A stretch of 64,000 nucleotides of DNA, from the IMG/VR virus record IMGVR_UViG_3300023108_000002. The stretch is one strand, 5' to 3'. This DNA is from a virus (Duplodnaviria; Caudoviricetes). Position numbers and translations under genes: made by a program. This document shows positions 355 through 63,600 of the stretch, piece by piece; position 1 is the stretch's first letter; every line of letters starts with the position of its first letter. The notes under the pieces are model-generated. The model had not been told where the DNA came from. It searched no databases and saw only the letters and a list, made by a program, of their open reading frames with translations.

Positions 355-948
355 ATGCCAAAGTTTAGAGACATTTTTGATGTCTTAGAAGAAAAACCAA
401 AAAAGAAACGCAAACGCCGAACCAAGGCGGAAATGGCAGCTGCCCGTGAAAAAGAAGCGCAGTTGGAAGCAGAAAAGAATTTTGTGGTTCCACAAAATAC
501 AACTGTATATTCTAATAGGCCCATACCAACTAAATCATCCAGGCCTATAAAAAAATATCCACCACCCCCACCAAAACCAAAATTTGATCTTTCTAAAATA
601 GAAGAAGAAATAGTCTTGCCAGGCGGGGCAAAATATGGTATAACTAAAGAAACAAAACATGGTAAACATATGATCTACTACTGTAGTGCTGCAAAAGATT
701 GGAGCATATTATATGATGCAAGATATAATGATGTATCGAAACATTGGAATTTTTATAACAAATTAAAAGTTAGATTAGAGAGTGAAAAAAATGGAAGCAC
801 AAAAAAATCCGTGGCATCTAGAAATAGAACCAGCAAAACTAAAACTTCTGCTAAGCGAAAAAGTACAAAAGGTGGTGTTCGAAAAAGCAGACGGAACGAT
901 TCGGGAGATGATGTGTACAACAAATCCAAATATAGTGCCGTGGCCTGA
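355..948 (+). CDS. hypothetical Lys/Arg-rich protein
   Basis: GGAG RBS before ATG 355; basic N-terminus (KPKKKRKRRTKAEM) and basic C-terminal tail overlapping the next gene. Confidence 0.7.
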   Translation: MPKFRDIFDVLEEKPKKKRKRRTKAEMAAAREKEAQLEAEKNFVVPQNTTVYSNRPIPTKSSRPIKKYPPPPPKPKFDLSKIEEEIVLPGGAKYGITKETKHGKHMIYYCSAAKDWSILYDARYNDVSKHWNFYNKLKVRLESEKNGSTKKSVASRNRTSKTKTSAKRKSTKGGVRKSRRNDSGDDVYNKSKYSAVA

Positions 949-1087
949 TAACCCTACTGAAGCAGAAGGGCGCATTTCCGAAAAAAGAAATAAAGATGAA
1001 AATCTTTTTTCAGTATGGGACGTGGAAAAGGAAGGATGGAGATCCTTTCGATTTGAAAGACTTATTAAATACGGAGATCCAGAATAA
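791..1087 (+). CDS. WYL_2 / SH3-like (former DUF2693-type) small protein
   Basis: Motifs V.FEKADGTIREM.CT and VWDVEKEGWRSFR typical of this T4-like phage family; ATG 791 preferred over GTG 782. Confidence 0.7.
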   Translation: MEAQKNPWHLEIEPAKLKLLLSEKVQKVVFEKADGTIREMMCTTNPNIVPWPDNPTEAEGRISEKRNKDENLFSVWDVEKEGWRSFRFERLIKYGDPE

Positions 1088-1350
1088 TGGGAAAGAAAAA
1101 ACTAAGAGATAAATATACTTCTAAGGGCGAACGTAGAAGTGTTGCTAAGCACAACCGCACACCAATGCCAAAGAATACAATCGGTCGTTTGATTCGTCAG
1201 AGGGATGCCTGGAAAGAGGGCAAGAATGTTGTTATCACTATGGCAAATCCAAATCCAAATGAAACAAACAAAAAATTTATTAGAGTAAATGCTAGAGAAC
1301 TTTGGGGAGATCCAAAGAAACAAAGAGCTTACTCCATGAAAGATGCTTGA
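1087..1350 (+). CDS. hypothetical basic protein
   Basis: 87-aa ORF translationally coupled to neighbours (TAATG and TGATG overlaps). Confidence 0.75.
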   Translation: MGKKKLRDKYTSKGERRSVAKHNRTPMPKNTIGRLIRQRDAWKEGKNVVITMANPNPNETNKKFIRVNARELWGDPKKQRAYSMKDA

Positions 1351-2156
1351 TGGTTGAATTTGACATAAAACCTTTGCATAAGAATAAAGCCTCTTTGTTT
1401 GTCGCAGAGAGGCACTATTCTGCTGTTATGCCTAGATTGACTAAACATTATCTTGGTTTTTTTGTCAAAGAAGAATTGATGGGTGTACTAACATTAGGGT
1501 GGGGCACAAATCCAATGGGAACAATAAAGAAAATGTTTCCAGACTTGACAACAAAAGATTACTTTGAAATTGGCAAGATGTGTATGGACGAGACAATGCC
1601 AAGAAATTCTGAAAGTCAGATGTTATCGCAAACAGTTAAATGGATGAAACAGAATACTCCAGATATCAAATTTTTATACACTTGGGCAGATGGAATTGTG
1701 GGCAAGCCTGGCTATGTTTATCAATCTGCTAACTTCTTGCATGGCGGTTTTATTTGGTCTGATGTTTATGTTTCAGAAACAGGAGAGAAAGTACACTTTA
1801 GAACCATCCAAAGACAAATGAAAAAAGAGATGGGTAGATTTGATACAAAATATGGCCCACGACCAAATGATGAAAAAATGGGTCAGCTAGGGTTTTCTAG
1901 AGTTTGGGGAAAGCAGTTTAGATATATCTATCCATTGACTAAAAAAGATAGAAAGTATATGAATAGATACTCGACTTGTAGTTGGGATAATAATTATCCT
2001 AAAGATAGTGATCTACAATGGAAGATAAAAAAACCAGGCGAAACAGAATATACTATCACTGATACAATGCCTTTTATACATAGTAAAGATGTTAAACACA
2101 ATACTGCAAATATAAGAAGGTATAAATCAGAAATAAGTATTGACGATTTTTTATAA
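1350..2156 (+). CDS. Mom-like (GNAT-fold) DNA modification protein
   Basis: Motifs ERHYS, EIGKMCMDETMPRNSES, LYTWADGIVGKPGYVYQSANF match the Mu Mom-like pattern (HY; PRNSES; ADP..G..G..YQA.NF); start at 1350 overlaps the upstream TGA. Confidence 0.7.
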   Translation: MVEFDIKPLHKNKASLFVAERHYSAVMPRLTKHYLGFFVKEELMGVLTLGWGTNPMGTIKKMFPDLTTKDYFEIGKMCMDETMPRNSESQMLSQTVKWMKQNTPDIKFLYTWADGIVGKPGYVYQSANFLHGGFIWSDVYVSETGEKVHFRTIQRQMKKEMGRFDTKYGPRPNDEKMGQLGFSRVWGKQFRYIYPLTKKDRKYMNRYSTCSWDNNYPKDSDLQWKIKKPGETEYTITDTMPFIHSKDVKHNTANIRRYKSEISIDDFL

Positions 2157-2166
2157 GGAGAATGAT

Positions 2167-2721
2167 ATGGTTGAATTGCCAGAATGGAAATCTTTCTATA
2201 AATTTAGTTATATAGAAACAGAAAATGGAAGTGAGAGTCAAAAGATTGATTATAAGTTTGATTCTTCTGAATTTGCATTACCAGAAGTACTAGCTAAGAT
2301 CGAAGATTTTCTTATTGCGTCTGGATATGATTGGATTCAGAGAGGTACTTTATCTGTAAAAAATAAAAGAAATGATTTGTTTACAAGCACCGAATTAGGA
2401 TCATTACCAGACGATTTGGAATTAGAATTAGCAGATTCATTGAAGAGTGCTCTAGAAGAACTCAAAAGACAGAATAATATTGAGATTGGTGAGAGAATGA
2501 TGGGAATAGACAGAACTGCAAAGGTTGTAAGTATAAATGATGGAAAAGAAATTCCAGAGTTTAATATGGATACATCATTTCAGCATATAACACCAGAAAC
2601 CCTTAATGTTAGATGGGATGAATATGATCAAACTATCACATATGGTGGAATTCCAATTGAAGAAATAGATTTTTCAAAACATGAATATGAAGTAGACGAA
2701 GAAGATAATATTTTACATTAG
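2167..2721 (+). CDS. hypothetical acidic protein
   Basis: AAGGAG RBS at ~2155-2160 before ATG 2167; no recognised motif. Confidence 0.7.
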   Translation: MVELPEWKSFYKFSYIETENGSESQKIDYKFDSSEFALPEVLAKIEDFLIASGYDWIQRGTLSVKNKRNDLFTSTELGSLPDDLELELADSLKSALEELKRQNNIEIGERMMGIDRTAKVVSINDGKEIPEFNMDTSFQHITPETLNVRWDEYDQTITYGGIPIEEIDFSKHEYEVDEEDNILH

Positions 2722-2733
2722 AAAGGATTATAA

Positions 2734-3201
2734 ATGGGATTTAATTTATCAAATAGATCGAAGGCAAAACTAGAAGGAGTGCATCCAGATATGGTTGCAG
2801 TCGTTGAGCGAGCCATAGAGCTCACTAAAGTTGATTTTGGTGTCACTTATGGAGTTAGAACGCTTGAAGAACAGGAGAGACTTGTAGCAAGTGGTCGCTC
2901 ACAGACTATGAAGTCTAAACATCTTATTCAAGACTCTGGTTATTCACATGCGGTGGATGTGGTAGCTTATGATGGTCCTGATGTAGTTTGGGAAATTAAT
3001 GTATATGACGATATTTGTGATGCTTTCAAACAGGCCGCTGAAGAGCTTGGAGTAGCGATCAAGTGGGGTGCTGCTTGGTCAGAAGGCGATATCAGATCTT
3101 ATTCTGGTACTGCTGAAGATGCTATGAATGCATACATAGATCTTCGTCGCAGTCAAGGTCGGAGGCCTTTTATCGATGGGCCACACTTTGAACTTATGTG
3201 A
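2734..3201 (+). CDS. endolysin, peptidase M15 family (L-Ala-D-Glu peptidase-like)
   Basis: LEGVHPD, GVRTLEEQ..L...G.S.T..SKH, HAVD, WG..W, DGPHFEL motifs. Confidence 0.88.
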   Translation: MGFNLSNRSKAKLEGVHPDMVAVVERAIELTKVDFGVTYGVRTLEEQERLVASGRSQTMKSKHLIQDSGYSHAVDVVAYDGPDVVWEINVYDDICDAFKQAAEELGVAIKWGAAWSEGDIRSYSGTAEDAMNAYIDLRRSQGRRPFIDGPHFELM

Positions 3202-3227
3202 TATATTTGCAATACTTTAAAAAAGTG

Positions 3228-3258
3228 TTGACATGTCGTAATAATTGTGGTATAAATA
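3228..3258 (+). promoter_or_regulatory. sigma70-type promoter overlapping a T4 late promoter, upstream of tmRNA
   Basis: TTGACA (3228-3233) -N17- TATAAA; the -10 is also TATAAATA (3251-3258). Confidence 0.75.
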
Positions 3259-3261
3259 AAT

Positions 3262-3590
3262 TCGTAATTGTTGATGCAATTCAAAACACATACTGGACTT
3301 GGGGGCAGTACCCAACGCCTCCACCATAAATGCACTATGTCCTGCTGCATCAGGAAGTTATGCAGAACATAGGTTGCCCACGATGGGACGCCGAAGTTAG
3401 TGCATTTTTGATGGGGGCGAACTAGGATCGACAGGTGAGTAGAGATGAGTGGAGATTACCGTGGTGGCTTACGATATTCGGCCAACTAAACTAAATGCAA
3501 ACGATAATTTTGCACCTTCTGAGTTCGCTCTAGCAGCGTAACCACAGGGGGTTGGCCACTCACCTAGCAACAGAAGAAGTGGCGCTCATA
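3262..3590 (+). ncRNA. ssrA: two-piece (circularly permuted) tmRNA, alphaproteobacterial type; outer ends approximate
   Basis: Acceptor piece ends GACTTGGGGGCAGTACCCAACGCCTCCACCA (CCA at 3324-3326). Intervening segment 3327-3412. Coding piece starts GGGGGCGAACTAGGATCGAC at 3413 (G3:U70 pair). Tag frame 3497-3541 = ANDNFAPSEFALAA-stop. Confidence 0.93.
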
Positions 3591-3609
3591 ATAAAAAGGA
3601 ATAACAAAA

Positions 3610-3963: not shown

Positions 3964-3974
3964 ATATTTACAGG

Positions 3975-4022
3975 GTTGCTACTTAATAAGCACGCCTCCC
4001 CCCACGGTTAGGGGGAGATTTT
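3975..4022 (+). promoter_or_regulatory. tandem hairpins; the second may be an intrinsic terminator
   Basis: TGCT-acttaata-AGCA, then CTCCCCC-cacggtta-GGGGGAG followed by ATTTT. Confidence 0.45.
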
Positions 4023-4045
4023 ACACACAGACACAGGAGAAAAAA

Positions 4046-4267: not shown

Positions 4268-4330
4268 CTGAAATGCGGATGTCGGATACAAGTAAATCAT
4301 ATATATTTTAGTGGTTATGAATTTCTAAGA

Positions 4331-43500: not shown

Positions 43501-43975
43501 TGCTTTGAGGCCCAGCAATATAACTAACAATAGAGGCGCTGCTGGAGGAACTTACACCATAAAAACTTATGCTTATGAAGATGGAAGATTTCAGTTAGAA
43601 GACCGTTCCTCTGTTGATAGTTGGGCCAATGCCGATCTTGGTGTTACTCCCTCTATGGGAAAATTCTATGTTGAGACTGGAGTGACATATTTTAGTTGTG
43701 GTAGAGAAACAAATTCTTCAGGAAGAACTGCCGGAACAGTAAGGAATTATGTTGCAGCCGTGGTCATGTCCCATGATGATCCGGGCGCTTGGAAAAATGA
43801 TAACAATAATGATGATCGAATCACATACACCTACACAGACACACAAGTCATAGTCGATTTCGGCAGCGGTATGGTTCATACACACGACAGAGTTTCCACC
43901 GACCCAGATGGAGTCCAAAGCGAGAATGGCGGTTTGGATCTGTTCTCCGGCAGCAGTTGGTTGGGTGGATGGTAA
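40577..43975 (+). CDS. glycine-rich tail fibre / adhesin
   Basis: N-terminal SG.I....I..EF....LSEYYRG...IKFSDF.G; several GGGGGG polyglycine blocks. Confidence 0.75.
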   Translation: MSITALPASGRITLAQIQGEFNPSDNSAPHALSEYYRGHGNVEDIIENENIPAVQKTQIKFSDFFGTSDEVGPSSVDLPAINVEDFWQECQGVNNWNDIQDNWKQYVTRINDRHAVAVDVRSEKAKVEVEFNNTGFGPPIMMETGVGEDTGFEKLLRNTQENKDYFEFGEWALTVPNKFYRFRIVATAGGGSGSVQKTELTGDALLNKDLPGLEESGYKGGDAVIISNGATVKMFGAPGGTDPDGIPDVSIIPEQGQYTVKNNGTVTGDYLKISSTTVEHPLVVTKGNYILEAGQKHTIKIVGGGGGGGAGSDDWKDFGAVGTAGTATTIEILKEDGSVHETYSAAGGRRGKGGDRPKWGGGETSTHTRLIGLKYGERGQSSTFGAGGGGGAQGSTGRHGTAGGAGGRGAGGGGGGAGVKWRTGFGGQGGGAGEEKTVEIDLTGKTQNWTMKVTAIGQGGAGGPRDGGSTKGGAGGTGGNGAIEYNSVMSSDKPRFVQFYWSNNVIESYYAGNNSRTTAQEYSGTSYNYISEVNEISRVGETRYYSLTRIPIPESADNDGVADVNWSTSRSNLMEVSGGIETSKPLGKYMHRFPDSAKRYTQDNIVNYTVGEDGNFMLPIGPPTGNARFSVFGDPSKYPINMYYREFDQRAQHQDKKGGSGKGGKSFYGDGTVGAAEYPNISGPEGTPAFGAGGGAGQHGGRGSDAYGYTETYGGYGAPTAYLGDFSCEPGDIINIQVPQGGRESRNEYTEYDEDTGDGQRYVSRADRGGDGLVQIYGLHGPSFTEMSHGGIVLMDDTGRVLKNLYSSGTSKRGVNEGLPSIPNKISVVLNGTTDPSSPKRYYIGYTARIRKSGKFRTPTKFNAPGAKVTITPTFTENVTPTEFQPIYLLPDYQGQEEVSVGTFGTRDAIDNELVPNWFIKKCDVTFTATRDAGDSNTATFTKVESTNADVGPDTITFGPNGGTQTFTVAEDEVYALRPSNITNNRGAAGGTYTIKTYAYEDGRFQLEDRSSVDSWANADLGVTPSMGKFYVETGVTYFSCGRETNSSGRTAGTVRNYVAAVVMSHDDPGAWKNDNNNDDRITYTYTDTQVIVDFGSGMVHTHDRVSTDPDGVQSENGGLDLFSGSSWLGGW

Positions 43976-44041: not shown

Positions 44042-46090
44042 ATGGCACAAAGATATGTAGATCCTAGCACTTTTACAAACTACGGAGTATCTAGACAAAG
44101 AAGTTCTTTCACCACACTTCAGGGTGTTGGTGAAATTTCTAGTGCTGGAGCGATTTCTGGCGGCGCGATGATGGTTCTTGCGACAGATTTGACTACAAGT
44201 TGGACTATGTATAATGGAGATCCTATTGCGGGAAATGAAATTATTGATCAGGATATTGCCAGTCCAGTGACTCCAATCACAAAACAATTTTTCACACAGG
44301 TTTCTTTGAATCGTCCAACCACTTCTAATGGCGCGGGCTCTGGACCTTATGCTGGAGTTGCAAACTTTAGTCAACTCAATGCTGGAATTAATCCAGAACA
44401 ACATGTTATGGTTTTTGAAACTAATGACGATATTTTACCAAAAAGTGGTGCCGTTTCGAGAGGGATTGACCAAAATTATAGAATTAGATTTGAGTTGGAT
44501 TTGCGTCCAAGACTTTATTTTGATGTGGCAGGAAATTCTGGTGATGTTGAATTTAACCAAGAATTATATCAATTAAATATTCGTATGAGTTCTAGGGGCG
44601 ATCCGCAATATGCAGTTGGTAGTACAATTGATGAAGCAACATTTGTTCCAGATTCTTATCATCCTGGCTATTCATTTACAGGAACATTAGCTTCTGGATG
44701 GGAGTTATCCACAGGAATACCAAATCCAAAATATGGTTGGTTCAAAGTAAATGTAGGAACCGCAAATCAAATATTAAATGATGGTAGTGTAGTATCTCCA
44801 CAATTGAGTGGTGATGGACTTATTACATTAGAAAACGGTTCGTCCACAAACACATCAGTTATTAGAAATCCTGGCGAGATGGTAGACTTATCTTTTGATG
44901 ATGTTGTTATTGCTGCTGATGTTTCTAATAGTGGCCCATATCATGTTTACGGAACTGAAACGGACACTTCTACATATGGCCTTAGTAAAGGATATTATTA
45001 TCCATTGTATCTAGACCAAGCAGCTTCGAATGCAGCGGATATTGCAGCAGGAGGCACAGGAATATCTCATACTCATACTTTTACTGAATATCCTCTTGCC
45101 ACCTTCTATATGCCAGATTCTGACCAAAATCATACAATGGCAACCGCTCCGAGCTCTTCTAGTTACACAAGATATATAAACAATAGATCGATAAGATTTA
45201 GAAATAAAAGAAAAGGTGGTGGATGGTTTAAGAGATATCCTAAAACCGACCCTACTCTTGAAGGAACATATCCTTTTTCATATAGATTAACAATGACTGA
45301 AAGAGGATTAATTTTATATATGTATGATGATGCGGCAAGTGATCAGGCAGATGATTATGCGTGGTTTTGCGTTCAAAGAACAGTAAGCAATGAAAGTGGA
45401 TTACCAAGAACAGATGAGGGTTCAAAATTTCCAGTTCACGCAATGTACTCATGTTCAAGAGAATCTTCATATTCTAGTGATGCAGGAGTTTATTTTTCCA
45501 GTCAGGCTGCAAATTTACAAACAGCAGAAACTATGGTTAATCAAGTTTACGACGATCAAGGAAATGAATATACGCTTGAAAATATTGATAATACTAAAAC
45601 ATTTTATATTTTGAGTCCATTTGATAGAGAAGATTATCTTGGAGATGAAGCAGCCGCAAAAAATATTTGGAGATTTGTTGTAAGAGAATTTGATATTCAA
45701 AAACCATCTGATGTTCATAAATTTGCAACAAGACATCAAATTGATAGCAATGCAGTAATCAATCCACTGGAACAATTAGCAATCACAGACGAAAACAGAT
45801 TTGTCATTACATTTCCAACGGGACTTACGACACAAAGATTTATGTATCCAAAAGAAGAGATAGATCTTATTTGTTTTTCCTCTGCTGAAGTTGTTGCTGA
45901 AGGAAGTAATATTCCAATGGCAACATATCTATACGATGGAGCTAGTGAAGATAAAAGACGCTATCAGGGAATGCGTTCAACTGCTGCATTTGGAAACGGT
46001 ATGAGAATTATGGTTTTGGTTAATTCACAATACATATTTAATTCGGATGTTAACTTAGATGCCAACGACCCTGTTGGAACAGGAACTTAA
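44042..46090 (+). CDS. unrecognised probable virion protein, paralogue 1 (682 aa)
   Basis: Shares ordered motifs with the next two ORFs (YP.SYRLT, DDYAWF.VQR, RFVVRE.D, INP.EQL.IT, GNGMRI). Confidence 0.8.
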   Translation: MAQRYVDPSTFTNYGVSRQRSSFTTLQGVGEISSAGAISGGAMMVLATDLTTSWTMYNGDPIAGNEIIDQDIASPVTPITKQFFTQVSLNRPTTSNGAGSGPYAGVANFSQLNAGINPEQHVMVFETNDDILPKSGAVSRGIDQNYRIRFELDLRPRLYFDVAGNSGDVEFNQELYQLNIRMSSRGDPQYAVGSTIDEATFVPDSYHPGYSFTGTLASGWELSTGIPNPKYGWFKVNVGTANQILNDGSVVSPQLSGDGLITLENGSSTNTSVIRNPGEMVDLSFDDVVIAADVSNSGPYHVYGTETDTSTYGLSKGYYYPLYLDQAASNAADIAAGGTGISHTHTFTEYPLATFYMPDSDQNHTMATAPSSSSYTRYINNRSIRFRNKRKGGGWFKRYPKTDPTLEGTYPFSYRLTMTERGLILYMYDDAASDQADDYAWFCVQRTVSNESGLPRTDEGSKFPVHAMYSCSRESSYSSDAGVYFSSQAANLQTAETMVNQVYDDQGNEYTLENIDNTKTFYILSPFDREDYLGDEAAAKNIWRFVVREFDIQKPSDVHKFATRHQIDSNAVINPLEQLAITDENRFVITFPTGLTTQRFMYPKEEIDLICFSSAEVVAEGSNIPMATYLYDGASEDKRRYQGMRSTAAFGNGMRIMVLVNSQYIFNSDVNLDANDPVGTGT

Positions 46091-46116
46091 TAAAGATATA
46101 AGGACTATTTTTTTTT

Positions 46117-46124
46117 TATAAATA
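46117..46124 (+). promoter_or_regulatory. T4 late promoter upstream of paralogue 2
   Basis: TTTTTTTATAAATATAAAGAAAA followed by an AAGGAG RBS. Confidence 0.8.
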
Positions 46125-46152
46125 TAAAGAAAAATACACAAAGGAGAATTTA

Positions 46153-49100
46153 ATGCCTATCGCCAGCGGATTCAGTATTCAAAGAAATGACATTATTGAT
46201 GTCGCACATCGGACGCAGAAAGAAATGCACACAGCAAATTCTGCGACCGATACCTATATTTTAAGATCAAAACCAGATTTCACTGATAAAGAGTGGGAAT
46301 GGGATATCAGAATGGGTGAAGTCAGATTGTATCTGGATAGAAGAAAAGGAAATAATGTTCTTGCTATTCCAACAATGGCATCAGAAATAACAGAATGGCG
46401 CGGAAAAAATTATACGGAAGGTTCTTTAGTTGCTGGAGAAGGTGGTGTAATTTACGATAGTAGTGTTGGTGAATTTGGAGCATTAATATTTAGCGATCTT
46501 TCTAAACCAACTTCTGGCGAAATTGTTGAAATTCAATATAGTGAGGCACTAGAAAAATTTACTGGCAATGACGGCGGCCTTCTTTTCCAACTGGCACATG
46601 ACCTTTGTGTTCATCCATATAATACTCCAGAAACTTTTAGGGCAAAATTTAGTAATGCAGAGACATTAAAAATTAATCCGGCCGGAGATGCGCTTGATCC
46701 AACCACTAATGGCATCAACCCAAGCCAAACAATTACTGGAACTCTTCTTAGCCAAAACGGCGACAACCTATCGGTGTTCAGAAACGATTTATCTGTAAGA
46801 TATAATCATGATTATTTAGAAGATGGAACGAAGGCTGAACAAAGAGAAGGGTATCAGTTGTGGAAGGTTGTTACAGAACATAGAGAATCGGCCACTGTAG
46901 ACCTTAGTGCTGGCGCTAACGCAACAACTCCTATAACTTTGATGGACGATTTTCCTTTAATTGAAGGAGATCTTGGTTCTGGTGAATTTAGAGTTGCAAT
47001 TAATGGAAGAGTTATTCCAAGAGATCACTATACAATTAGTAGTGAGGTTGCTGATAGAAAATCTACATTCAAACTGATAAGAGATACAACTTTATATCCA
47101 CTAACTTGGGTCGCAGATTTAGTTTCATCGAATATTGTAATCACCTATCATTGGGCAAAATCGCTAGATGTTCCATATGGGGCATTAGTTGGTTATAAAG
47201 GAATGGGCCCAGATCAGGCAAATTTAACACAAACTAATGCAACTGTAAATCCAGCAGATGGTTCTTTTCCTAGACAGGGCGCAGATAAAGAGTATTGGGT
47301 ATATAGTACTCCAATTTTAGCATCCCCTGCTACAACAGGAATTAACGGATTTGTTGGTTGGGTTTATGATACTGGTACAAACGCAGCAAATGTTGTAACA
47401 GATCAAAGTACGGTAGGTACACCTATTACTACAGATGGAATGAGCGAAAGAAGAAAAAATCTTGCTACCGTTTCTGATGGAGATGTATTCTACTTATCTT
47501 TCGTTCAAAATGACGATTTTGCAAACCCATTTGAATTGGTTTATCCAAAACCAGTAAGTTCTGAATCAGCTGATGTTAAAGCAGCGCTGAGAAGAATTAC
47601 TAATAAATTTCTTGTTGAGTCAGATAAGGGTGTTGATTTATTGTCAGCATCAGATATGTCTTTCCTTAATAGTTATTCTCCTGTTACTGCAAGAAAATCA
47701 CAGAGATGGAGAATTAGATTTGAATGGAATGAATCTGACTTTGCATTAAAAGTAAATGTTGCAACACACCATCAATTAAAAGATGATATGACCATTACTC
47801 AGCCTCAAGGTAGAGATGGAATTAAGTCTCCAGTCTATAGAGAGCCTGGAGAACTTTGTGATGTTTATAAAGAACCTGTTATTGGAAAGGGTGCAAGCGT
47901 TCAAATTACAACAGCAAAACAACAGTGGTTCAAAAGAAATAAAATTGTTGATGAATTGTCCTTAACATATCCAATGTCATATCGTTTGACATGTACAAAT
48001 CATGGGTTAGGATTATTTTTGTTCGATCAAGCCTCAGTAGATCAAGATGATGATTACGCATGGTTTGTTGTACAAAGACATGTGGATCAAACAACAGGAC
48101 AGCCAGAATATACTGACAAGTCTCCCGTACATTGTGTATATTCTCCATTCAAACCAACTGCTGATATATCTACCATTAATAGATATTATGCTGTAGATGA
48201 TTTGGATGATTTATCTCAACCACCGCCAATTGCGAATGCATTGGGAGATATTTTTAAATCCGAATCTCCAACGATTTTCATAGACAAAGATAATTCTATT
48301 TTTAATGGATATGTAAATGCTGTAGATTTTAATAGTTTTGGATACACCACTGGCGTATCTGCTGGTATTTCCACTGGTGGAAATATAGTTACCACAGATT
48401 TCAAGGCCGATTTGTTTAGAGGAATTACAGGCACTTCTGGAATTCCTTCGACATCTCTCTGGTCAGCAACAACATATTCGTTTCAAATAGATGCTAATAC
48501 AGCTGATCTTTCAACATTGGAAGATTCCGGCGCATTAATGGCTGGACGATATATTCAATTTGATGCTAATGATGCCTCATTTGCCTCAGCACCAAATCCA
48601 GCTGATGCCGTTGGCGGGCGTATTATATCATATAACAAAAGCACTAAGGAATTGGTAATTTCTATGTCAGCAGACAAGAAAGCAGTTGCAGATGCTCTTG
48701 CGGGACAGGTGCCGGTTACTGCACACTTAGGAACAAGTGCGACTGGTGATGTGATAGGAATTAACGATTTTGCACAATCATCTCTTGCACAAGATTATGG
48801 GATTTTACATACTTTACCATATACAGGTGCGGACCAAGTTCTATTGACAACTCATAGTAGTGATTCAAATGCATTGTGTGTGAAGAATGAACTTGGAAAT
48901 GTAAATGATTTGAATGTTGTTGGATTTAACTCCCTTCCAAGAAGAAGAGAAACGGCAGTTACAATGGGTGCGTCAAAATCTCCAGTTCCACTTATAAGAG
49001 ATTCTTTAGCAAATCCAGTTTCTATGATTACTGCTACTTCTAATGGTAATAATTTTACAGCAAATCATCCAGCAGCTGCTCTGTGGGTAAATACATTAGA

Positions 49101-50418
49101 TATGGCTCCTTCTGCTTCTGGTAATGTAGTTTTCCCAGCACAACTATTAGATAGAATGTCTACTTTTAGGACAGCATCATCAAGCGGAACAGGAGTTCCA
49201 CCTGTTCCAGAAAATATTAGTCTTTCAGATTATAAAGAAGGGGATTCTGCTGTTTTAGACATATTATATAACGCTCAACCAACAAACGCATCAAAAGTTT
49301 TTGAATCTATTGTTGTAGCAATTGATGATGTTGAAGTTGTAAGAGACCCAGATGCATATGTTCTTACATATGATGAATGGGTAGCACACGGCGATCCATC
49401 TACCGCTGGAAAATTTTTAGAAATGCTTGAAGCGGCCGGTGCGGATAATATTGGACCAAACTTCAAACTTCCAGCAGTTAACACAACTGTTTCTAATCTA
49501 TTGGGAGAGACAGTAGATGGAACAATAGATGGTTCTGTTGTTAATAGAGTAACAAATCGTAGAATGTTTTTAGACAAAACTGGAGATTCTTTTGTAATCG
49601 CTTCTGGAAATTTAGTTGTCTCTACAAACGATACAAAATTGAGTAGTTTATTGCCAGGTGATATTGTTTGGAAAGAAAACTCAACCACAGATGCTTCTAG
49701 AAATACATATATGTATGATTTCTGGAACAAAACTTTAGTATTCAAATATGCTCCTAGAGCAAGTGCAAACTTTAGTATTTCTATGGTAAATTATACATCT
49801 TCTAATCCATCTCAAAATAGATATATTATTGATGTTCCAGAAGATAGAAATTTCCCAGAAACAAATATGAATAAAATTAAAACAATTAATAGATTTGTTG
49901 TTAGAGAACAGGACGTATTAAAACCTTGGGATTATCATGTTTCTGCTACAATGCACGAAATTGACTCTCATGCGATCATCAATCCTCAAGAACAATTGTC
50001 CATAACACAGGATAGAAATTTTGTGTTCTCGTTCCCAACACAAATTACATCACAGAGGTTTTATTACCCACAAAGTGAACTTGATATTATTTGTGTATCT
50101 TCTGCTGATTTCTCTACTCAAGCTGGTCATGTAGAAATAAATAAGTATGGAGATTCAGATGGGTTGAATGGAGTATTTTCTGGAAATGATTTTGTTCCAG
50201 CGGGCCTCGATGGTGACGAAGGCACAAGATATGCTGGGCATGTTGGACCAGATGGAGAAAAATATATCTGGAGAAAGTCTGCAAGAAAATATGAAGGAAT
50301 GGTTTCTACACTTCCAAATGGAAATGGTATGCGAATTTTCATGCAAGTAACGGGATCTAGTATTAGATACAGTGATGTGTCGCCAGGAAAAGATCCGGGC
50401 TCCGTCTTAGGAACATAA
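46153..50418 (+). CDS. unrecognised probable virion protein, paralogue 2 (1421 aa)
   Basis: Same motif scaffold with long inserted regions. Confidence 0.85.
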   Translation: MPIASGFSIQRNDIIDVAHRTQKEMHTANSATDTYILRSKPDFTDKEWEWDIRMGEVRLYLDRRKGNNVLAIPTMASEITEWRGKNYTEGSLVAGEGGVIYDSSVGEFGALIFSDLSKPTSGEIVEIQYSEALEKFTGNDGGLLFQLAHDLCVHPYNTPETFRAKFSNAETLKINPAGDALDPTTNGINPSQTITGTLLSQNGDNLSVFRNDLSVRYNHDYLEDGTKAEQREGYQLWKVVTEHRESATVDLSAGANATTPITLMDDFPLIEGDLGSGEFRVAINGRVIPRDHYTISSEVADRKSTFKLIRDTTLYPLTWVADLVSSNIVITYHWAKSLDVPYGALVGYKGMGPDQANLTQTNATVNPADGSFPRQGADKEYWVYSTPILASPATTGINGFVGWVYDTGTNAANVVTDQSTVGTPITTDGMSERRKNLATVSDGDVFYLSFVQNDDFANPFELVYPKPVSSESADVKAALRRITNKFLVESDKGVDLLSASDMSFLNSYSPVTARKSQRWRIRFEWNESDFALKVNVATHHQLKDDMTITQPQGRDGIKSPVYREPGELCDVYKEPVIGKGASVQITTAKQQWFKRNKIVDELSLTYPMSYRLTCTNHGLGLFLFDQASVDQDDDYAWFVVQRHVDQTTGQPEYTDKSPVHCVYSPFKPTADISTINRYYAVDDLDDLSQPPPIANALGDIFKSESPTIFIDKDNSIFNGYVNAVDFNSFGYTTGVSAGISTGGNIVTTDFKADLFRGITGTSGIPSTSLWSATTYSFQIDANTADLSTLEDSGALMAGRYIQFDANDASFASAPNPADAVGGRIISYNKSTKELVISMSADKKAVADALAGQVPVTAHLGTSATGDVIGINDFAQSSLAQDYGILHTLPYTGADQVLLTTHSSDSNALCVKNELGNVNDLNVVGFNSLPRRRETAVTMGASKSPVPLIRDSLANPVSMITATSNGNNFTANHPAAALWVNTLDMAPSASGNVVFPAQLLDRMSTFRTASSSGTGVPPVPENISLSDYKEGDSAVLDILYNAQPTNASKVFESIVVAIDDVEVVRDPDAYVLTYDEWVAHGDPSTAGKFLEMLEAAGADNIGPNFKLPAVNTTVSNLLGETVDGTIDGSVVNRVTNRRMFLDKTGDSFVIASGNLVVSTNDTKLSSLLPGDIVWKENSTTDASRNTYMYDFWNKTLVFKYAPRASANFSISMVNYTSSNPSQNRYIIDVPEDRNFPETNMNKIKTINRFVVREQDVLKPWDYHVSATMHEIDSHAIINPQEQLSITQDRNFVFSFPTQITSQRFYYPQSELDIICVSSADFSTQAGHVEINKYGDSDGLNGVFSGNDFVPAGLDGDEGTRYAGHVGPDGEKYIWRKSARKYEGMVSTLPNGNGMRIFMQVTGSSIRYSDVSPGKDPGSVLGT

Positions 50419-50436
50419 ACATAGGAAAAGTTTTTT

Positions 50437-50444
50437 TATAAATA
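50437..50444 (+). promoter_or_regulatory. T4 late promoter upstream of paralogue 3
   Basis: Same TTTTTTTATAAATATAAAGAAAA block as at 46111-46133, with an AAGGAG RBS. Confidence 0.8.
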
Positions 50445-50475
50445 TAAAGAAAAGCAACTTTAAAGGAGAACATAA

Positions 50476-53400
50476 ATGGCTACCTCACTAGCAACCGAAT
50501 TTTTGTCAGGTGGTTTTTCTATCCAAAGAAACGAAATGGTGTCTATGCAGCAACAGAAACACCGCCAAAAGTTTCAGTTTTTGAATAGTTTTAACCAAAC
50601 ATATACAAGACTCGATAGACCAGCACAAGGAGAATTTGATAGAATTCGTCCTTATTCACTATCATCTGAAAAAAGACAATTTATTGGTGGGACTGTTACT
50701 ACAGTAACTACTCCATTAACACAAACATATAGAAATGGAAATCAAAAAGCACAACTAGGAGGTATCACTTTAAACTCACAGGGTGGTATTGTAACTCTCA
50801 ATGTTCTTTCTGGTGGATATGGTTATGCTCCTAGTACAACATTTAATGTGATCTTTAGAGGTGGCCAACCAGATGTTGGAACTTTCGAGCAATGTTACGC
50901 TACAGCACAATCAGACGGTGAGGGTAGAATTGTTTCTGTAGATATTCAAGTCACTGGATTGAACTATGATGAAACAACTGGTGCCGAAATTACAGCAGAA
51001 ATAGATGAGTCTCCTACTATTGGACAGTTCTATGTTTCTTTCTTTGATGGGGTTGGTGCTATTACTGGAGTTGATATTGAAAGTGGAAACACAGGACATC
51101 GCCCTGGCGTTTATTTTGTAGAAGCTGGCACGGTTGCTGTTGGTGTCGGTGAGGATGGTGTAACTCCAAACGCTTCAGCAGGTTCTGGTGGTACTTTCCA
51201 AGTGCATGTTGATAATAGCGGCGCTGTTATTAAAGTAGTTCCTCTTACTTTTGGACAAGATTATCTTGTCGGAAATGAAATTACTATTCCAGCAACACGA
51301 CTTGGTAATAATGGAACTCAGTTAACACCAGTTACCGATCTTGTTATTAGTGTCAGTTCTGTTGTTGACGCCGATCAGTTTGCCCTTGATTATGGAACAG
51401 TCACTTGGAGAAGTGAAACCTTTCAAGTTGGCGATACTGTTGTTTTAGAATATTTTATCGATACTTCTAGAGATACAAGAGCTGTTGATGGTGTTCTTAG
51501 AACACTTGCTACTGATTTGTGTCTACATCCATATGGAAACTATTATAGTTCTGCATTTTCAACTGTCCAACAAAGAAATGCTGTTTTGACTTGGGATGCT
51601 GCTCCGACTTATGGTGTTACTACATTTACTGCCACTTTAACAGATGCTGTTTCTGGATTTGCTTTAACAGCAGATACAGGATTTCAACCAGGCGATGTTG
51701 GTAAAAGAATTATTGAACCAAATAAAACTGGCGCTGCAAAAATTATATCTGTAGATGCCGCTGGTGTTGCTACAGTAACTATGGATAATGTTTTGGAACC
51801 AGATACAAGAGAAGTAAATGCATTTGAAAGTTCCACAAAAACCACATATTCGGTAGGAGAATGGAGACTTGCGATTGCAACATCTGAATTTGAATCGCAA
51901 CCATATAATATCATTTATCCATATCTCAATTCAGATGCAACTTCTCCAATTCCAATCGCAGTTGATGGTCAACAAAACCATAGAGATGTTAAAACATGTA
52001 TCAATAGAATTGGTGATATGTTTATTGTAGAATCTGAAAAGGCAACAGACCTTCTTTCTTCGAAAGCAGATATTAACTCTGCTACTTCAGCTATACCATC
52101 TTCGGTTTCTTTGACACAACCAGTAAAAGATGCTAGAAAACCACAAAAATGGAGAATGAGATTCTTCTATGACCAAAGAGATGAATATCTTTATGTAAAT
52201 ATAGCAACTTCTCTTCAAATTAAGGACAATGGAGATTTGACAAAAGGTCAAGGACGTGATGGTATTAAACAGGCAGTATTTAGACAGCCAGGAGAATTAA
52301 GTGAAATTTATTACAATTTCTCCAATGATACTAACAAAGCAAAATCTGGTTGGTTCCGTAGACAAGGTAAAACAACAGACGATATTGAAAGCGGATATCC
52401 ACTTGCATATCGTTTAACTTGTACTGACCATGGCACAGGACTGTTCTTGTTTGACCAAGCATCAGTAGATCAAGATGATGACTACGCATGGTTTGTTGTA
52501 CAAAGACATGTTAACAATGTTTCTGGAAGAATCGAATTTGAAGATGGAAAATCTCCAGTACATTGTTTATATTCACCATCTACAAGGCCAGAAGAAACAT
52601 CAAACTATAATGTAGGTTTCTTTGCAGAAGTTGATGAAGATTTGGATGTTATCAGTGGACAAACTACAATAACATCAAAATCTCTTGAAGAACTTCAAAT
52701 CTATGATGTGAATGGTAGATTGCTTAAACCAGGCCTACCAGTAGATGTATCTATTGTTACAGATTCTAGTCCTGTGGAATTTAGAACTACTCCATATTCG
52801 GGCGGACCTAAATATCTCGCTCCAACTCTTGCTGCTGGCGGTGTTGCCGGTGTTGGTCCGTATGATGGAATTTCATTTGTCGATACCGCGACACTAGGAA
52901 CAGATTCCACAACTGGATATACAATTATTAATGACCAAGTGCTTATGCCAGCAATTACTGGTGGTGCGACTGGAACATATGAAGATCTAGCTATTTCAAA
53001 AAGTGCTGGATTTACAGGAGCAACTATTACTGATAGAACTCAATTTTCTCTGAATTTTGCTAAGGGATATGGAACAACTTTTGTTCCTGTGGGACAATTT
53101 ATCACTGCACTAGAACAAACGAATAGATTTACAGCTAATGTGGATGAAGATATTGCAAAAACCGCAGCAGACATAGGAGACTCCAGAACCGTTGTTGCAA
53201 AGGCTGGATTTACTATTGGTGGTTTGGATAACTTTAACGCAGCAAGAAATCAGATGACGGGCCCTGCTAGACTCGGATTGACGCCATCTAGAATTAGACA
53301 TAGAAGTAGATCTGGTGTTGATACATACTTAGAGGTTTCCGATTTCCAATTCCTTGATAAAACTGAAATTGCACCAAGGGTAAATCCAAACGGCAAGGCA

Positions 53401-54978
53401 AGAGAACTTCCAGTCGTTTCATCTGTAGCAATATTTAAACCTCTTTCTGGATTTGCAAAAAATCTAGTAAACCAACAAAGAGTGAGAATAATTCACGTTA
53501 CTCCTGTAACAGCTACATATTCTGCTGGTTCAAATATTCCAGTAATAGCACTACAGGCCGCTGGATCAATTACTGGACCGGTAACTGGATTGACAGATGA
53601 TGTAAATGCAGAAATTGTTCCAATCCCTTACGCACAATTGGGCGGAAGCACAGCAGGATTTATTACAGACTATTCTGGTTTATCAGAAGCAACTCCAACC
53701 AATAATGGATTTATTACTGGTGGCAGCGGTTTTACTGACATGTTTATTACTGCTCCAGGCTCTGGAACTTTAGATATGGCTGTGGGTGATATGATTACAA
53801 CTAAACAAGAAGCTGTCAAAGTTGATGCTACATATCTTGGAGCGCCAGGAGCGCCAATTGAGGGTTATAGAGTTGATGCTATTGTTGATACTTTCTCAGA
53901 AGGTGATGGTTTCATTTATGAATATGCATGGGAAGGTGCTGGATTTGGTAACACATATACAAACTTCTATGGAAGATCTGGTACTTCATCCAACCCACTA
54001 TTTGAAGTAAATAGATTGAAAATATTTGTTGATGGTGCAGAAGCAGATGCTGCTGTTTTCGGACAAAACTATACTATCAACTCAGCGGGAGAAGTAGAGT
54101 TTGGTACAACTAATAAGAGTTTGGAATACTTTGGTGTTGAGAAACCAATGTATGCGTATAACTTGACAAACGACACATGGACTTTCAATGAAGTAATTGA
54201 AAATGGAACAGTTGTAAAACTTTCTTATGAAAACTATAATGATATCGAAGAAAGAGATACAGGTAAATCAACATACTTGATTAAAGTTCCAGAGGATAGA
54301 GATATTCCAAGCATTTGGAATGATATTCACAGAGTTGCCAAAGGTATCTACAGATTCTGTGTCAGAGAAGCCGATGTGTTCAAACCTTGGGATTATCATG
54401 TATCTGCTGTAATTCCACAAGTAGATAGCCCTGCATGTATTAACCCTGTAGAACAGTTGTCAATTACACAAGACAAGACAGTTATCTTTAACTTCCCAAC
54501 ACCTCTTGCATCACAAAGATTTATCTATAGTGATGCTGAAATGGACTTGATTTGTGTCGCAGGCGCAGACAGTTCAACTCAAGGTGGTATTATCAAAACT
54601 GCTTCTACAAAGTATGACTTGGATGCTGCACAAATCTCTGCGGTTACTGATGGACATACTCCAGGCACTGAAAATATATCAAGCAATGGAGATAAAATGA
54701 ATTTCCGTCAACCATATGATTGGCACAACACTCACCAAGGAGTTCACTCAGCTACATTGGCTACAAATGGTGGAGTTGCATCTTTTAGAGATGGAGCTGT
54801 GGCTGTTGATACCATTTCGAACTCAACACACAGAACATATGTTGGTATGATGAGTACAAAACCTTTTGGTAACGGCATGAGAATCTTTATCTTAACAAGA
54901 GGTGGGCCAGTTAGACCACAATATAGTGACTATACTCCAAGAGATATTAGAGCAGAAAACGAAAATACATTTACATAA
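50476..54978 (+). CDS. unrecognised probable virion protein, paralogue 3 (1500 aa)
   Basis: Same motif scaffold with different inserted regions. Confidence 0.85.
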   Translation: MATSLATEFLSGGFSIQRNEMVSMQQQKHRQKFQFLNSFNQTYTRLDRPAQGEFDRIRPYSLSSEKRQFIGGTVTTVTTPLTQTYRNGNQKAQLGGITLNSQGGIVTLNVLSGGYGYAPSTTFNVIFRGGQPDVGTFEQCYATAQSDGEGRIVSVDIQVTGLNYDETTGAEITAEIDESPTIGQFYVSFFDGVGAITGVDIESGNTGHRPGVYFVEAGTVAVGVGEDGVTPNASAGSGGTFQVHVDNSGAVIKVVPLTFGQDYLVGNEITIPATRLGNNGTQLTPVTDLVISVSSVVDADQFALDYGTVTWRSETFQVGDTVVLEYFIDTSRDTRAVDGVLRTLATDLCLHPYGNYYSSAFSTVQQRNAVLTWDAAPTYGVTTFTATLTDAVSGFALTADTGFQPGDVGKRIIEPNKTGAAKIISVDAAGVATVTMDNVLEPDTREVNAFESSTKTTYSVGEWRLAIATSEFESQPYNIIYPYLNSDATSPIPIAVDGQQNHRDVKTCINRIGDMFIVESEKATDLLSSKADINSATSAIPSSVSLTQPVKDARKPQKWRMRFFYDQRDEYLYVNIATSLQIKDNGDLTKGQGRDGIKQAVFRQPGELSEIYYNFSNDTNKAKSGWFRRQGKTTDDIESGYPLAYRLTCTDHGTGLFLFDQASVDQDDDYAWFVVQRHVNNVSGRIEFEDGKSPVHCLYSPSTRPEETSNYNVGFFAEVDEDLDVISGQTTITSKSLEELQIYDVNGRLLKPGLPVDVSIVTDSSPVEFRTTPYSGGPKYLAPTLAAGGVAGVGPYDGISFVDTATLGTDSTTGYTIINDQVLMPAITGGATGTYEDLAISKSAGFTGATITDRTQFSLNFAKGYGTTFVPVGQFITALEQTNRFTANVDEDIAKTAADIGDSRTVVAKAGFTIGGLDNFNAARNQMTGPARLGLTPSRIRHRSRSGVDTYLEVSDFQFLDKTEIAPRVNPNGKARELPVVSSVAIFKPLSGFAKNLVNQQRVRIIHVTPVTATYSAGSNIPVIALQAAGSITGPVTGLTDDVNAEIVPIPYAQLGGSTAGFITDYSGLSEATPTNNGFITGGSGFTDMFITAPGSGTLDMAVGDMITTKQEAVKVDATYLGAPGAPIEGYRVDAIVDTFSEGDGFIYEYAWEGAGFGNTYTNFYGRSGTSSNPLFEVNRLKIFVDGAEADAAVFGQNYTINSAGEVEFGTTNKSLEYFGVEKPMYAYNLTNDTWTFNEVIENGTVVKLSYENYNDIEERDTGKSTYLIKVPEDRDIPSIWNDIHRVAKGIYRFCVREADVFKPWDYHVSAVIPQVDSPACINPVEQLSITQDKTVIFNFPTPLASQRFIYSDAEMDLICVAGADSSTQGGIIKTASTKYDLDAAQISAVTDGHTPGTENISSNGDKMNFRQPYDWHNTHQGVHSATLATNGGVASFRDGAVAVDTISNSTHRTYVGMMSTKPFGNGMRIFILTRGGPVRPQYSDYTPRDIRAENENTFT

Positions 54979-60682: not shown

Positions 60683-60688
60683 TTAATA

Positions 60689-63600
60689 ATGCCTCAGGTA
60701 CAAATACGTGGCGGAACAAAAGTTCAAGCCAGAACAAGAAGGATAGATAATATAATTTTCGATTCTGTGGCCGAAGTTACGGTGCAGTATGTAAATTATT
60801 ATTATGATGAGTCAAAAGAAAAAAATATTGCCCTTGAAAAGTTAAGAACCTCAATCACATTTGAAACTATCACTTCAAAGTTAGAATATAATCATTTAGA
60901 ATTAGATTTTTTAGAAGGAACCACTAGTCCATATGTTCCAATTGGTACAGAAAGTATGGAAAAATTTGCAACCGTTTCTGCGCCCCCTATAGATTATGTG
61001 GCAATACATAATGAATTTTTGCCAGGAAAGTTTGTAAGTTCTAAAAATCATAGAGAAAGATTTTCTGGAGATGATTCTAGCAGATTTGTTGTGCTTGATG
61101 ATAATTTTAGAAAAACTGCTACTATGCCATTACGGCACGTACACACTTTAAATAATCCTAATGATTCTGGGCCGGGGGATGCGTTTCATTTTTCCATTTT
61201 ATCTAGAAATATACTTACAGAAAATCCCAAGGTTAGAGTTAGTGTTTACAGAAGCACTTTGGAGTATGAAGATGCAATTGAAAATTTGGATGAATTTCAA
61301 AGAGGCTTGTCGTCTGTATTCGTTCAAAGCTTTGATTATTCGATTGAGGGTGTTGGATGGAATAGATTTGTAATAAATTTAAGAACTTTAAACATACCTA
61401 TTGGTAACTGCTTGTTGTGGTTTGTTATTGAAAGATTGCCAATTATAATTGAAAATCCATTTGATATTCCTTCTGGAGAATATAATGAATCATTTAATGA
61501 AACTAATATACAAATAGAAACTATCGTTGATGATAATTCTGAAACTAAAATTTATAGATTTTTAAGTTCTATAGATGATTGGATTGATAATGACACATTA
61601 ACAACTAGGCCCTTTTCTATTCAAATAAATGGAGTCGATTTAACTTTAGATGTTGATTTTTCATATCAATTATTTAAACATAGAGAAACTATACGAAAAT
61701 TAGAAATAACATTTTCTGACGATGTTCTTCCATTAACTCAGGAAGGCGAACTTTCATCTTTCTCAGGAGTTCTTACAGTTGAGCCTAGAACAACAGGTGT
61801 TAATTCTTATGCTATTTTATCGAATTGGTATAAATTTTCACACGGCGCAATTTTTACCGATGGCAGCGCGATATATCCATCTATACCTTCTGAAATTGAT
61901 TCGTGGCAAGTTAACGCGGATGACGCGATTTCATATACCAGAAACAGTCGGTCTTATATTGGATTTGTTTCTCCTGACCCAATCGAGTCTTATGAACTAG
62001 AAACTCAAGTTTCTTCGACAGGAAGAGATGATGATGCTATAGGTGTTGTGATTGGTTTTGCGAAAGATGAGGATTATGAATATACATTAAGTGCTGTTAG
62101 AGTTCATGGTGGTATGTTTGGTGGAGTAACTTGGATGTTGGCTACAAACATAGCACAAACAATATCATTTAATGGTAGAACTATATCTGATAAAATTTCT
62201 AGTCATAGATGGTATCTTAGAACACCAGCCGGAGAAATAGATTATGAAACAATCCCTAATATTGGAAGAAATTGGAGCAATACTCCAACAGGAGCAAAAA
62301 TAAAAATTAGAAAAGAGGGAAATATTATAAAGGCATGGACAAGCCAGATGAATTCTGATGTAATTGACCCTGCAAGTTTAATTGAAATTGATCTTAATGA
62401 ATATGAAGATACTAAAAAATTCATTAACTCTCGATTTGGATTCTCTACTTATTCACAATCAAATTCAAAATTTACTAATATATCTTTTTCTCCTATCATT
62501 GGAGAAACGAACTTAGAAGATATAAAGGCCGGAGAATTATTTGTTGGGGGATTTGCTACTGAGATTGCTTCCACTGAAGTCAAAAATTTAAATCCAAAGG
62601 CAAATCATGAATTTATAGATTCAATTACAGCCGAAAGATTTATCATAGATGGGCCAAAAGTTGCGAAAGAAAAATTTAACTTTATAACATTTGAACTAAC
62701 TTCAGCAATAGACACTGATTCTGAAAATTTCATAGATTTAATTAAACCAAGTCTATATGCTGGAACTATACTTGATTATACTAATATTAGTATGCTTTTA
62801 AAAACTAAAAAACTTACATTTACACACAATCCTTTTACTGGATTTAGAATTGATTATCTCACCGAAAACATTGATTCTCAATTAGTGTCAGGCGAAAGTT
62901 TAGTTGATATATTAAATAGATATATTTCTCCTACGAACGACTTATTTGCTGCTCAAAAATTAGTAGAAATCATCGAAGGAAAAGACGCAGCGAAAAGATA
63001 TGTTGAGTTTATATCTTCTGAAATGAGTCAAAATATTATACAAAATATTTCAGGAGAATTTACATCAACAGGAGTTTCTATAGAAAATATTTCTAGTGAA
63101 TTTGCTATATCTCAAAATATAAGTAAAAAAATAATAGAAGTAGGATATGCTGGAATAAAATATGAATTCTCATACGATCCTATCGATAGAGTGCAAAATT
63201 TAGATTCTATTACTAAAGAATTAAATCTTTCAGAATTTATTTCTATTTCTGATATCGCTTCTATTCAAAATTATGGAAGAGAATTAAATAGAGCAGTAGA
63301 TATTTTAAAAGAACAAGATCTTGTTATGGATATACAATCTGGATTGTATTATTTCGAACCCCAAGATTATTTAAATGATATTACAAAATCTATGTATTTT
63401 GGTAAACCAAAAGATAGCATTATTCCTATCAATTATGGTTTCCAAAAATATACAGATTCTACAGAAAAATACAAAAAATATATTGAATTATCGAAAGACA
63501 TTCTATTTGAGTTTGAGCCCTTTGCAGAAAACCCAATAGATATTTTATTCAATTCTGAACTCTTTATTGAAAAACCAAAAGATATAGAATATGATACTCT

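Follow-up and report, generated by a model that had tools for sequence, protein, structure and literature searches.

The Mom protein of phage Mu makes N6-carbamoylmethyl-adenine at the word SAS from Gly-tRNA (PMC13219725, PDB 8BV8). The residues H58, Y59, R111, S124, D149, R151 and Y159 are required for its activity, and the substitutions R111K and R151A cripple the enzyme (PMC13219725). Phage C5-cytosine methylases that are linked to TET dioxygenases mainly methylate GpC[C/T], with some of them sparing GpCA (Burke et al. 2021, PMC8256090). The function of GpC-limited hypermodification has been left open, and genome-wide protection by such marks has been doubted (bioRxiv 10.1101/2023.12.21.572611). 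Here we consider a stretch of 64,000 nucleotides from a virus of the Caudoviricetes (IMG/VR record IMGVR_UViG_3300023108_000002), in the following denoted as the window, in which CCWGG and CCGG sites occur almost exclusively after a G or before a C. Sites with neither of the two are called unflanked. We argue that this flank rule is probably the footprint of a base modification carried by the phage DNA, for which a Mom-family gene within the window is a tentative candidate.

A flank rule for CCWGG and CCGG sites

By exact counts, the window contains 50 CCWGG, 51 CCGG and 10 CCSGG sites on the span 618..62535 (no strand assigned), and a 5' G or a 3' C accompanies all but three of these, the three being CCGG sites. 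The form HCCWGGD does not occur at all (0 of 50), unflanked CCSGG is equally lacking (0 of 10), and 48 of the 51 CCGG sites are flanked. An earlier note on this DNA, made from a tally by eye, had stated that all of about 48 CCWGG sites read GCCWGG or CCWGGC and that about 48 of about 51 CCGG sites are flanked; the exact numbers bear this out, and the three exceptions are precisely those named there.

Two of these exceptions are of one kind. The CCGGGC at 43781..43786 (+ strand, within TCCGGGC) reads GCCCGG on the other strand, such that a GCC word shares one base with CCGG, and is an exception in appearance; the second of the GCCCGG kind is located at 50395..50400 (+ strand, likewise TCCGGGC). 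The ACCGGT at 53577..53582 (+ strand) is the sole truly unflanked CCGG within the window, and together with an ACCGGA upstream of the window it makes up the two true cases in 169 kb of this phage. These 169 kb were rebuilt stepwise along the JGI contig Ga0255743_10000013 via protein-identity look-ups, and the pieces join conflict-free. An assembly of 159.5 kb (the window plus upstream sequence), to which a further 9.9 kb were added to give the 169 kb, is the basis of the larger null models.

For the window, the null model consists of 1000 synonymous-codon shuffles within genes. Unflanked CCWGG is observed 0 times versus 41.3 +/- 4.1 in the null (minimum 29), and unflanked CCGG 3 times versus 32.0 +/- 4.9 (minimum 16). 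Flanked CCWGG is observed 50 times versus 16.8 (null maximum 31), with flanked sites 2-3 times enriched; the sites were hence not merely lost but turned into the permitted form. The 159.5-kb assembly has 95 CCWGG and 122 CCGG sites, with a null expectation of 82.8 +/- 6.9 unflanked CCWGG and 76.2 +/- 8.0 unflanked CCGG. The total of CCWGG is only mildly reduced there (95 vs. 122). Over the full 169 kb, 0 of 99 CCWGG, 9 of 127 CCGG and 1 of 11 CTGCAG sites are unflanked. The flank rule is real and selective in nature. The comparison with a codon-shuffled null had been proposed in the earlier note, whose further claim that only uncovered sites have been purged is supported. Its control words are unconstrained, as it had said: unflanked are 9 of 17 CCWWGG, 74 of 107 TCGA, 100 of 162 GATC and 13 of 27 CGCG sites.

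Codon usage at Pro-Gly pairs

The window encodes 53 Pro-Gly pairs, and in-frame Pro-Gly makes 43 of the 50 CCWGG sites. In the pairs whose preceding codon has A, C or T as its last base, Gly is encoded by GGC in 30 of 30 cases, with GGC accounting for 16% of the Gly codons overall; GGA, GGG or GGT after such a codon is found in 0 pairs of the window. The rare codon GGC is hence used unless the preceding codon ends in G, exactly as had been proposed. Positions 44042-54978 hold, in tandem, three large paralogues (682, 1421 and 1500 aa) for structural, tail-fibre-like proteins. At homologous Pro-Gly pairs the first paralogue reads AAT CCT GGC (44870..44875, + strand), with the rare Gly codon providing the 3' C; the second reads GAG CCT GGA (47844..47849, + strand) and the third CAG CCA GGA (52287..52292, + strand), with GAG and CAG, respectively, providing the 5' G and Gly being encoded by GGA, the common codon. 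All three triplets read as the earlier note had given them.

Distribution of the rule among related phages

The rule is shared by a number of relatives. The cultured phage Melnitz (141.5 kb) has 68 CCWGG and 15 CCGG sites, 0 of them unflanked in either case. G001, a complete circularly permuted genome of 148 kb whose two ends are bridged by G010, has the same numbers of sites, with 3 unflanked CCWGG and 0 unflanked CCGG. The remaining relatives, given as sites/unflanked for CCWGG and CCGG in turn, are G002 (30/0; 2/0), G003 (18/0; 35/11), G004 (35/0; 16/0), G006 (26/0; 0/0), G010 (32/1; 7/0), G011 (27/0; 51/14), G012 (21/0; 10/0) and G013 (11/0; 2/0). In G003 and G011 CCGG is relaxed while CCWGG is still absolute, and the two pressures are therefore separable. 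The 80 loci retrieved via the Melnitz methylase have 149 CCWGG sites with 4 unflanked and 61 CCGG sites with 9 unflanked; the 31 loci retrieved via Mom have 160 with 3 and 68 with 7 unflanked, respectively. Within a sample of metagenome contigs picked by capsid similarity, all of them at most 71 kb in length and used for prevalence, not for gene presence, 31 contigs are informative: 24 obey the rule fully (179 sites, 0 unflanked), 4 nearly, and 3 do not.

Four phages do not obey the CCWGG rule, namely HTVC008M (112 of 136 CCWGG and 10 of 51 CCGG sites unflanked), Mosig (90 of 125 and 27 of 53), S-CRM01 (184 of 252 and 188 of 290) and S-B05 (287 of 341 and 11 of 23). Another case is G015, which harbors both the Mom and the methylase gene, and has a normal CCWGG density; with no purge there, it carries no information on the exemption. 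The rule therefore also needs restriction pressure.

The protected word

Further targets delimit the word that exempts a site. Across nine relatives, 73 of 74 CTGCAG sites are flanked; this hexamer is under the same flank rule, and GCT is therefore covered besides GCC. For targets beginning with CG no G-flanked survivors are found: CGTCTC has 0 sites versus about 21 expected in the 159.5 kb, and CGCG is almost absent from Melnitz and G001. Neither is a flank exemption seen for CATG. With no exemption from GCG (CGTCTC, CGCG) or GCA (CATG) flanks, and with CTGCAG flanked, the word is therefore GCY. The earlier note had placed the mark on C in GC or GCC: a shield on a G-C-pyrimidine word is supported, but plain GpC is too broad, as GCG and GCA are unexempt, and GCC alone is too narrow, as CTGCAG is covered.

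The position of the protective feature is narrowed by the exceptions. The GCCCGG form makes up 7 of the 9 unflanked CCGG sites, with about 4% expected (3.2 of 76 in the codon-shuffle null of the 159.5 kb). Since GCC shares one base with CCGG in this form, its dominance places the protective feature inside GCC and argues against a simple requirement at position -1. The word RGCY (M.CviJI-like) was considered as covered word and rejected, as the base 5' of the G is unconstrained.

The lineage of G001 (L126-L133) and G010 (L244-L247) shows additional, asymmetric rules, with CCTGW occurring as GCCTGW in 104 of 105 and CCGCA as GCCGCA in 28 of 29 cases. These imply a further restriction specificity that is shielded by the same 5' G. 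As a separate observation, the word GGCC, with GCC on either strand, exceeds the codon-shuffle null, with 264 versus 159 sites in the 159.5 kb of the window phage and 158 versus 104 in G001.

A probable modification shield at GCY

We infer from the sequences compared here that the phage DNA probably carries a modification shield at GCY and that sites left uncovered by it have been purged; the modification as the cause of the rule and the identity of the enzyme are the parts of this account that go beyond the counts. A phage enzyme would add a sequence-specific base modification at 5'-GCY-3' (GCC, GCT) after replication. A target starting with CC or CT after a G would then contain or abut, in one strand or both, a modified base. 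A mark on a single strand would suffice to block double-strand cutting, from which the logic of either a left G or a right C would follow. In hosts that cut CCWGG, CCNGG, CCGG and CTGCAG, selection would remove the uncovered sites, and where the protein forces a site, as for Pro-Gly, a neighbouring codon would be recoded to give coverage (CCW GGC).

A Mom-family protein as candidate enzyme

The window harbors a Mom-family (GNAT-type) DNA-modification gene of 268 aa at 1350..2156 (+ strand; PF25680, phrog_1384), and the same coordinates are called on public contigs. The earlier note had stated that no cytosine methylase lies in the window; family scans of the larger open reading frames (ORFs) indeed found none, but the Mom-family gene had been overlooked. 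The protein matches PF25680 with 164.1 bits (cut-off 27.1) over profile positions 2-194 of 202 and phrog_1384 with an E-value of 4.5e-39. It aligns to the Mu Mom structure 8BV8 with an E-value of 7e-16, at 30% identity to Mu Mom. The residues H58, Y59, S124, D149 and Y159, all essential in Mu, are kept, and the marine Mom copies have a C-terminal extension of about 60 residues.

Mom is 58-79% identical among the window phage, Melnitz, G001 and G006. It is also found in G002-G004, contigs that were retrieved via Mom itself, and is absent from HTVC008M, Mosig, S-CRM01 and S-B05. In screens with the Melnitz ORFs, Mom is the only recognised DNA-modification gene that is present in Melnitz, G001 and the window phage and not in HTVC008M or Mosig. 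Its identity between the window phage and Melnitz is 73.5%, with 50% for their DNA polymerases; the polymerase tree places the window phage outside HTVC008M and Mosig at a weakly supported node (81/89). The locus of the gene varies: in the window phage it precedes PhoH, in Melnitz it separates the baseplate modules, G001 and G003 have it between DNA polymerase and UvsX, and in G006 it adjoins gp46. The gene stands alone, with no conserved partner gene. A 'Mom' of cyanophage S-SCSM2R has no match to the Pfam family and was discarded.

An adenine mark (SAS as in Mu, or SASNY) is rejected as shield. GCCGG lacks A, while CAG is part of every CCWGG, so that a SAS mark would cover each CCWGG whatever its flank, yet never GCCGG. 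Mom is the best-correlated candidate for the shield enzyme, and on the genomes compared the correlation is suggestive and unproven. As a tentative assignment, the shield enzyme may be the Mom-family protein of the window, with a target other than adenine or a specificity of a new kind. That marine Mom enzymes modify a pyrimidine or the paired guanine in 5'-GCY-3', in place of a Mu-type SAS adenine, appears conceivable and somewhat doubtful.

Observations against the shield, and a nuclease-based alternative

A number of observations weigh against a GCY shield, or against Mom as its source. GCC has no adenine and Mu Mom acts on adenine, hence a role for Mom requires a new target base. In all marine Mom copies, and likewise in the copies of an Edwardsiella and a Psychrobacter phage, R111 of Mu is replaced by K and R151 by I. 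There are phages with a 43%-identical Mom and without the exemption: the Edwardsiella phage has 0 CCWGG sites and 1 CCGG site, and the Psychrobacter phage shows no rule. The contigs G001-G005 were retrieved via Mom, so that the association of Mom with the rule is partly built in. A rule that is missing elsewhere may also reflect missing pressure rather than a missing shield, as for G015. Moreover, 5'-G or 3'-C exemptions occur where no GCY is involved. GAAGAC survives as GAAGACC, with no GCY overlap, in 15 of 15 cases in Melnitz, 11 of 11 in G001 and 13 of 17 in the window phage. In HTVC008M (L004-L006) every GATC (83 of 83) and every GANTC (43 of 43) has a G before it or a C after it (GGATC/GATCC, GGANTC/GANTCC), together with a partial GCY bias at CCGG and CTGCAG, and Mosig (L136-L143) has GATC only as GGATCC (19 of 19). 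The patterns in HTVC008M and Mosig may hint at a broader 5'-G mechanism that extends beyond GpC.

These exemptions in non-GpC contexts, found in HTVC008M and Mosig with neither Mom nor a C5 methylase and in the Melnitz clade as GAAGACC, also speak for an explanation that needs no modification: host restriction enzymes, or phage nucleases directed at host DNA, would be unable to act after a 5' G, either by nuclease specificity or by a general 5'-G effect. We consider this unlikely. At least five different nucleases would need to share one odd negative flank requirement; with one flank rule holding over at least five unrelated targets, a single shield is therefore more economical than five nucleases that reject a 5' G. 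Such nucleases would also leave unexplained why GCCCGG, with a C 5' of CCGG, is the main class of survivors, and why the exemption is missing at GCG and GCA flanks. No enzyme of HCCWGGD-type specificity is known.

Several depletions were recorded alongside these patterns. GAAGAC, a BbsI-type word, is 4-6 times depleted in Melnitz, G001 and the window phage with its upstream sequence; G002, G010 and G012 together have it as GAAGACC in 10 of 10 cases, and G003, G004, G006 and G011 show neither the GAAGAC depletion nor the GAAGACC rule. GGCC is depleted in HTVC008M (22 vs. 76 expected); Mosig has 120 GGCC sites, none of them GGGCC or GGCCC, and an annotated adenine methylase adjoins its DNA polymerase. 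In the 159.5 kb of the window phage GGTACC, CTTAAG, CGTCTC, GTGCAC and AACGTT all have 0 sites versus 18-26 expected. GGAACC is lacking in Melnitz and G001, with GGWCC found 0 times versus 61 expected in Melnitz and 2 times versus 56 in G001, and G001 has zero GAATTC.

The C5-cytosine methylase

A further explanation assigns the shield to the C5-cytosine methylase of the genome, which would mark the C of GpC or GpC[C/T], perhaps with further tailoring, and this mark alone would protect. A cytosine methylase elsewhere in the genome had been predicted in the earlier note, and a C5-cytosine methylase of 398 aa (PF00145, 197.6 bits) is indeed encoded by the same phage at L265:1731-2927, some 103 kb upstream of the window. 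Its PC and ENV motifs are intact in the alignment, and it is 39% identical to the Melnitz methylase over the full length. In Melnitz the methylase is followed by a TET/JBP dioxygenase, and a methylase homologue is paired with a TET dioxygenase in Melnitz, in G006 and in 65 of the 80 IMG/VR loci, the same 80 methylase-bearing loci that obey the rule as given above. The specificity of this enzyme class, GpC[C/T], is exactly the word derived here (PMC8256090).

We nevertheless regard it as improbable that this mark alone is the shield. The complete genome G001 obeys the rule with no C5 methylase or TET found by Pfam search, tblastn and custom HMM (positive controls at E 1e-200). In the 39.7-kb fragment of G012, the closest relative of Melnitz (polymerase 80% identical), no C5 methylase is found, though the fragment spans the DNA polymerase-UvsX locus where Melnitz has one; in G003 the polymerase-to-UvsX locus is likewise visible and holds no methylase. 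G001, G003 and G012 obey the rule without the gene, and the methylase is therefore dispensable for it. In the window phage the methylase has no TET neighbour. A tblastn search of the 159.5 kb with the Melnitz TET found no homologue, and no Tet_JBP is listed among the genes called in the further 9.9 kb. The neighbours of the methylase are instead an Asn-synthase-like protein and a SAM methyltransferase. This module is present in S-B05 and S-CRM01, which show no flank rule, although CCGG is nonetheless purged to 23 sites in S-B05; with the module present and no exemption, the methylase is therefore insufficient. Judged by these genomes, the C5 methylase is neither necessary nor sufficient and is not the common cause of the rule. 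The proposal that cytosine methylation by the phage is the shield thus stands in part: the methylase exists and its class acts on GpC[C/T], but G001 and G012 obey without it, and S-B05 and S-CRM01 have it without an exemption.

The module itself consists of the genes for the Asn-synthase-like protein, the C5 methylase and a SAM methyltransferase of 232 aa, and is located at L265:874-3618 in the window phage, at L268:865-3487 in S-B05 and at L267:1809-3646 in S-CRM01. This conserved module, common to the window phage and T4-like cyanophages, is suggestive of a cytosine modification that goes further than plain 5-methylcytosine.

Other candidate genes

Very unlikely, in our view, is a shield made by a host enzyme, for which the hosts of two far-apart phage lineages would have to share the enzyme, or by an unrecognised phage gene such as that of a g7-like protein of about 400-490 aa. 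The g7-like protein adjoins the methylase in the window phage, the methylase-TET pair in Melnitz and, in G001, a TET-associated glycosyltransferase; HTVC008M, Mosig and the cyanophages lack it, and it has weak ParB/DndB-like leads in a protein atlas (score 0.77). Its copies, however, are mutually only 28-29% identical, have no Pfam or PHROG match and were not detected in G003 or G006, both of which show the locus. ParB-like proteins have been described as partners of phage dioxygenases (PMC13229309).

Melnitz, G001 and G006 lack a homologue of the 246-aa N6/N4 methyltransferase of the window phage (PF01555, L151:9210-9950), which was therefore rejected as common cause. A search of G001-G010 for a dCMP hydroxymethylase of the thymidylate-synthase-like type was negative. 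Another gene of the phage upstream of the window is that of a 95-aa SET-domain protein (L007:6966-7253), with no homologue in Melnitz or G001. G001 harbors a TET-associated glycosyltransferase (PF20691; L130:6858-7625, - strand) that is clustered with Mom, endonuclease VII and the g7-like protein; it sits in a complete genome without TET, C5 methylase or ThyA-like hydroxymethylase.

Source phage and genomic context

The window comes from a marine T4-like phage, and its genes include those for PhoH, gp59, gp32 and gp2 and for the baseplate proteins gp5, gp6, gp25, gp48, gp53 and gp54, with very large structural proteins thereafter. Among named phages it comes closest to Methylophilales phage Melnitz and to HTVC008M and Mosig, both of Pelagibacter, with a gp6 identity of just 35-37%; a megablast search with 8 kb of the window against cultured phages gave no match. 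Exact 40-45-mers taken from the two ends of the window had no match among viral contigs either. Near-identical DNA comes chiefly from salt-marsh metagenomes; those of marine and freshwater origin gave weaker matches. A second block of giant genes in opposite orientation is located upstream of the window, with one gene encoding 3157 aa (L147:10631-20104).

Significance and comparison with known systems

The flank rule provides a quantitative case of a genome co-adapted to its own, presumed, epigenetic mark, with hundreds of sites, few exceptions and an abundant clade of ocean phages. It bears on whether marks on words of two to three bases can protect a genome, and the footprint would supply evolutionary evidence of protection by such a short-motif mark. 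If the proposed GCY shield is correct, short-motif marks would protect entire genomes through the rewriting of these genomes around the marks, and flank-conditional purges would allow the modification motifs of uncultured phages to be deduced cheaply from metagenome sequence. Should marine Mom be the enzyme, this would represent a new base target for tRNA-dependent Mom chemistry. The cultured phage Melnitz and its OM43 host (H5P1) make the rule directly testable. The marine Mom subfamily and the 5'-G flank effect in pelagiphages lie beyond what current knowledge explains.

With the palindrome avoidance known from phage genomes the rule shares that selection strongly depletes short restriction targets, beyond a codon-aware null. 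It differs in that the totals of CCWGG, CCGG and CTGCAG are mildly reduced and the purge hinges on one flanking base, and in that obligatory sites are rewritten into the allowed context and not removed. The system of C5 methylase and TET (5mYOX) at GpC[C/T] (PMC8256090) resembles the present case in the word, GCC or GCT and not GCG or GCA, and in that Melnitz and many relatives possess the pair; the window phage differs by a methylase without TET neighbour, and relatives without either gene obey the rule. Mom of phage Mu and the protein of the window share the Pfam Mom family, the residues H58, Y59, S124, D149 and Y159, and a stand-alone gene, whereas the low identity, the changes R111K and R151I and the extra C-terminal residues set the window protein apart, and the SAS specificity of Mu cannot explain the rule. 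Finally, M.CviPI (GpC) of a chlorella virus is likewise a viral cytosine methylase with a short motif that overlaps many restriction sites, but a GpC mark would cover GCG and GCA, both of which are unexempt in the window phage.

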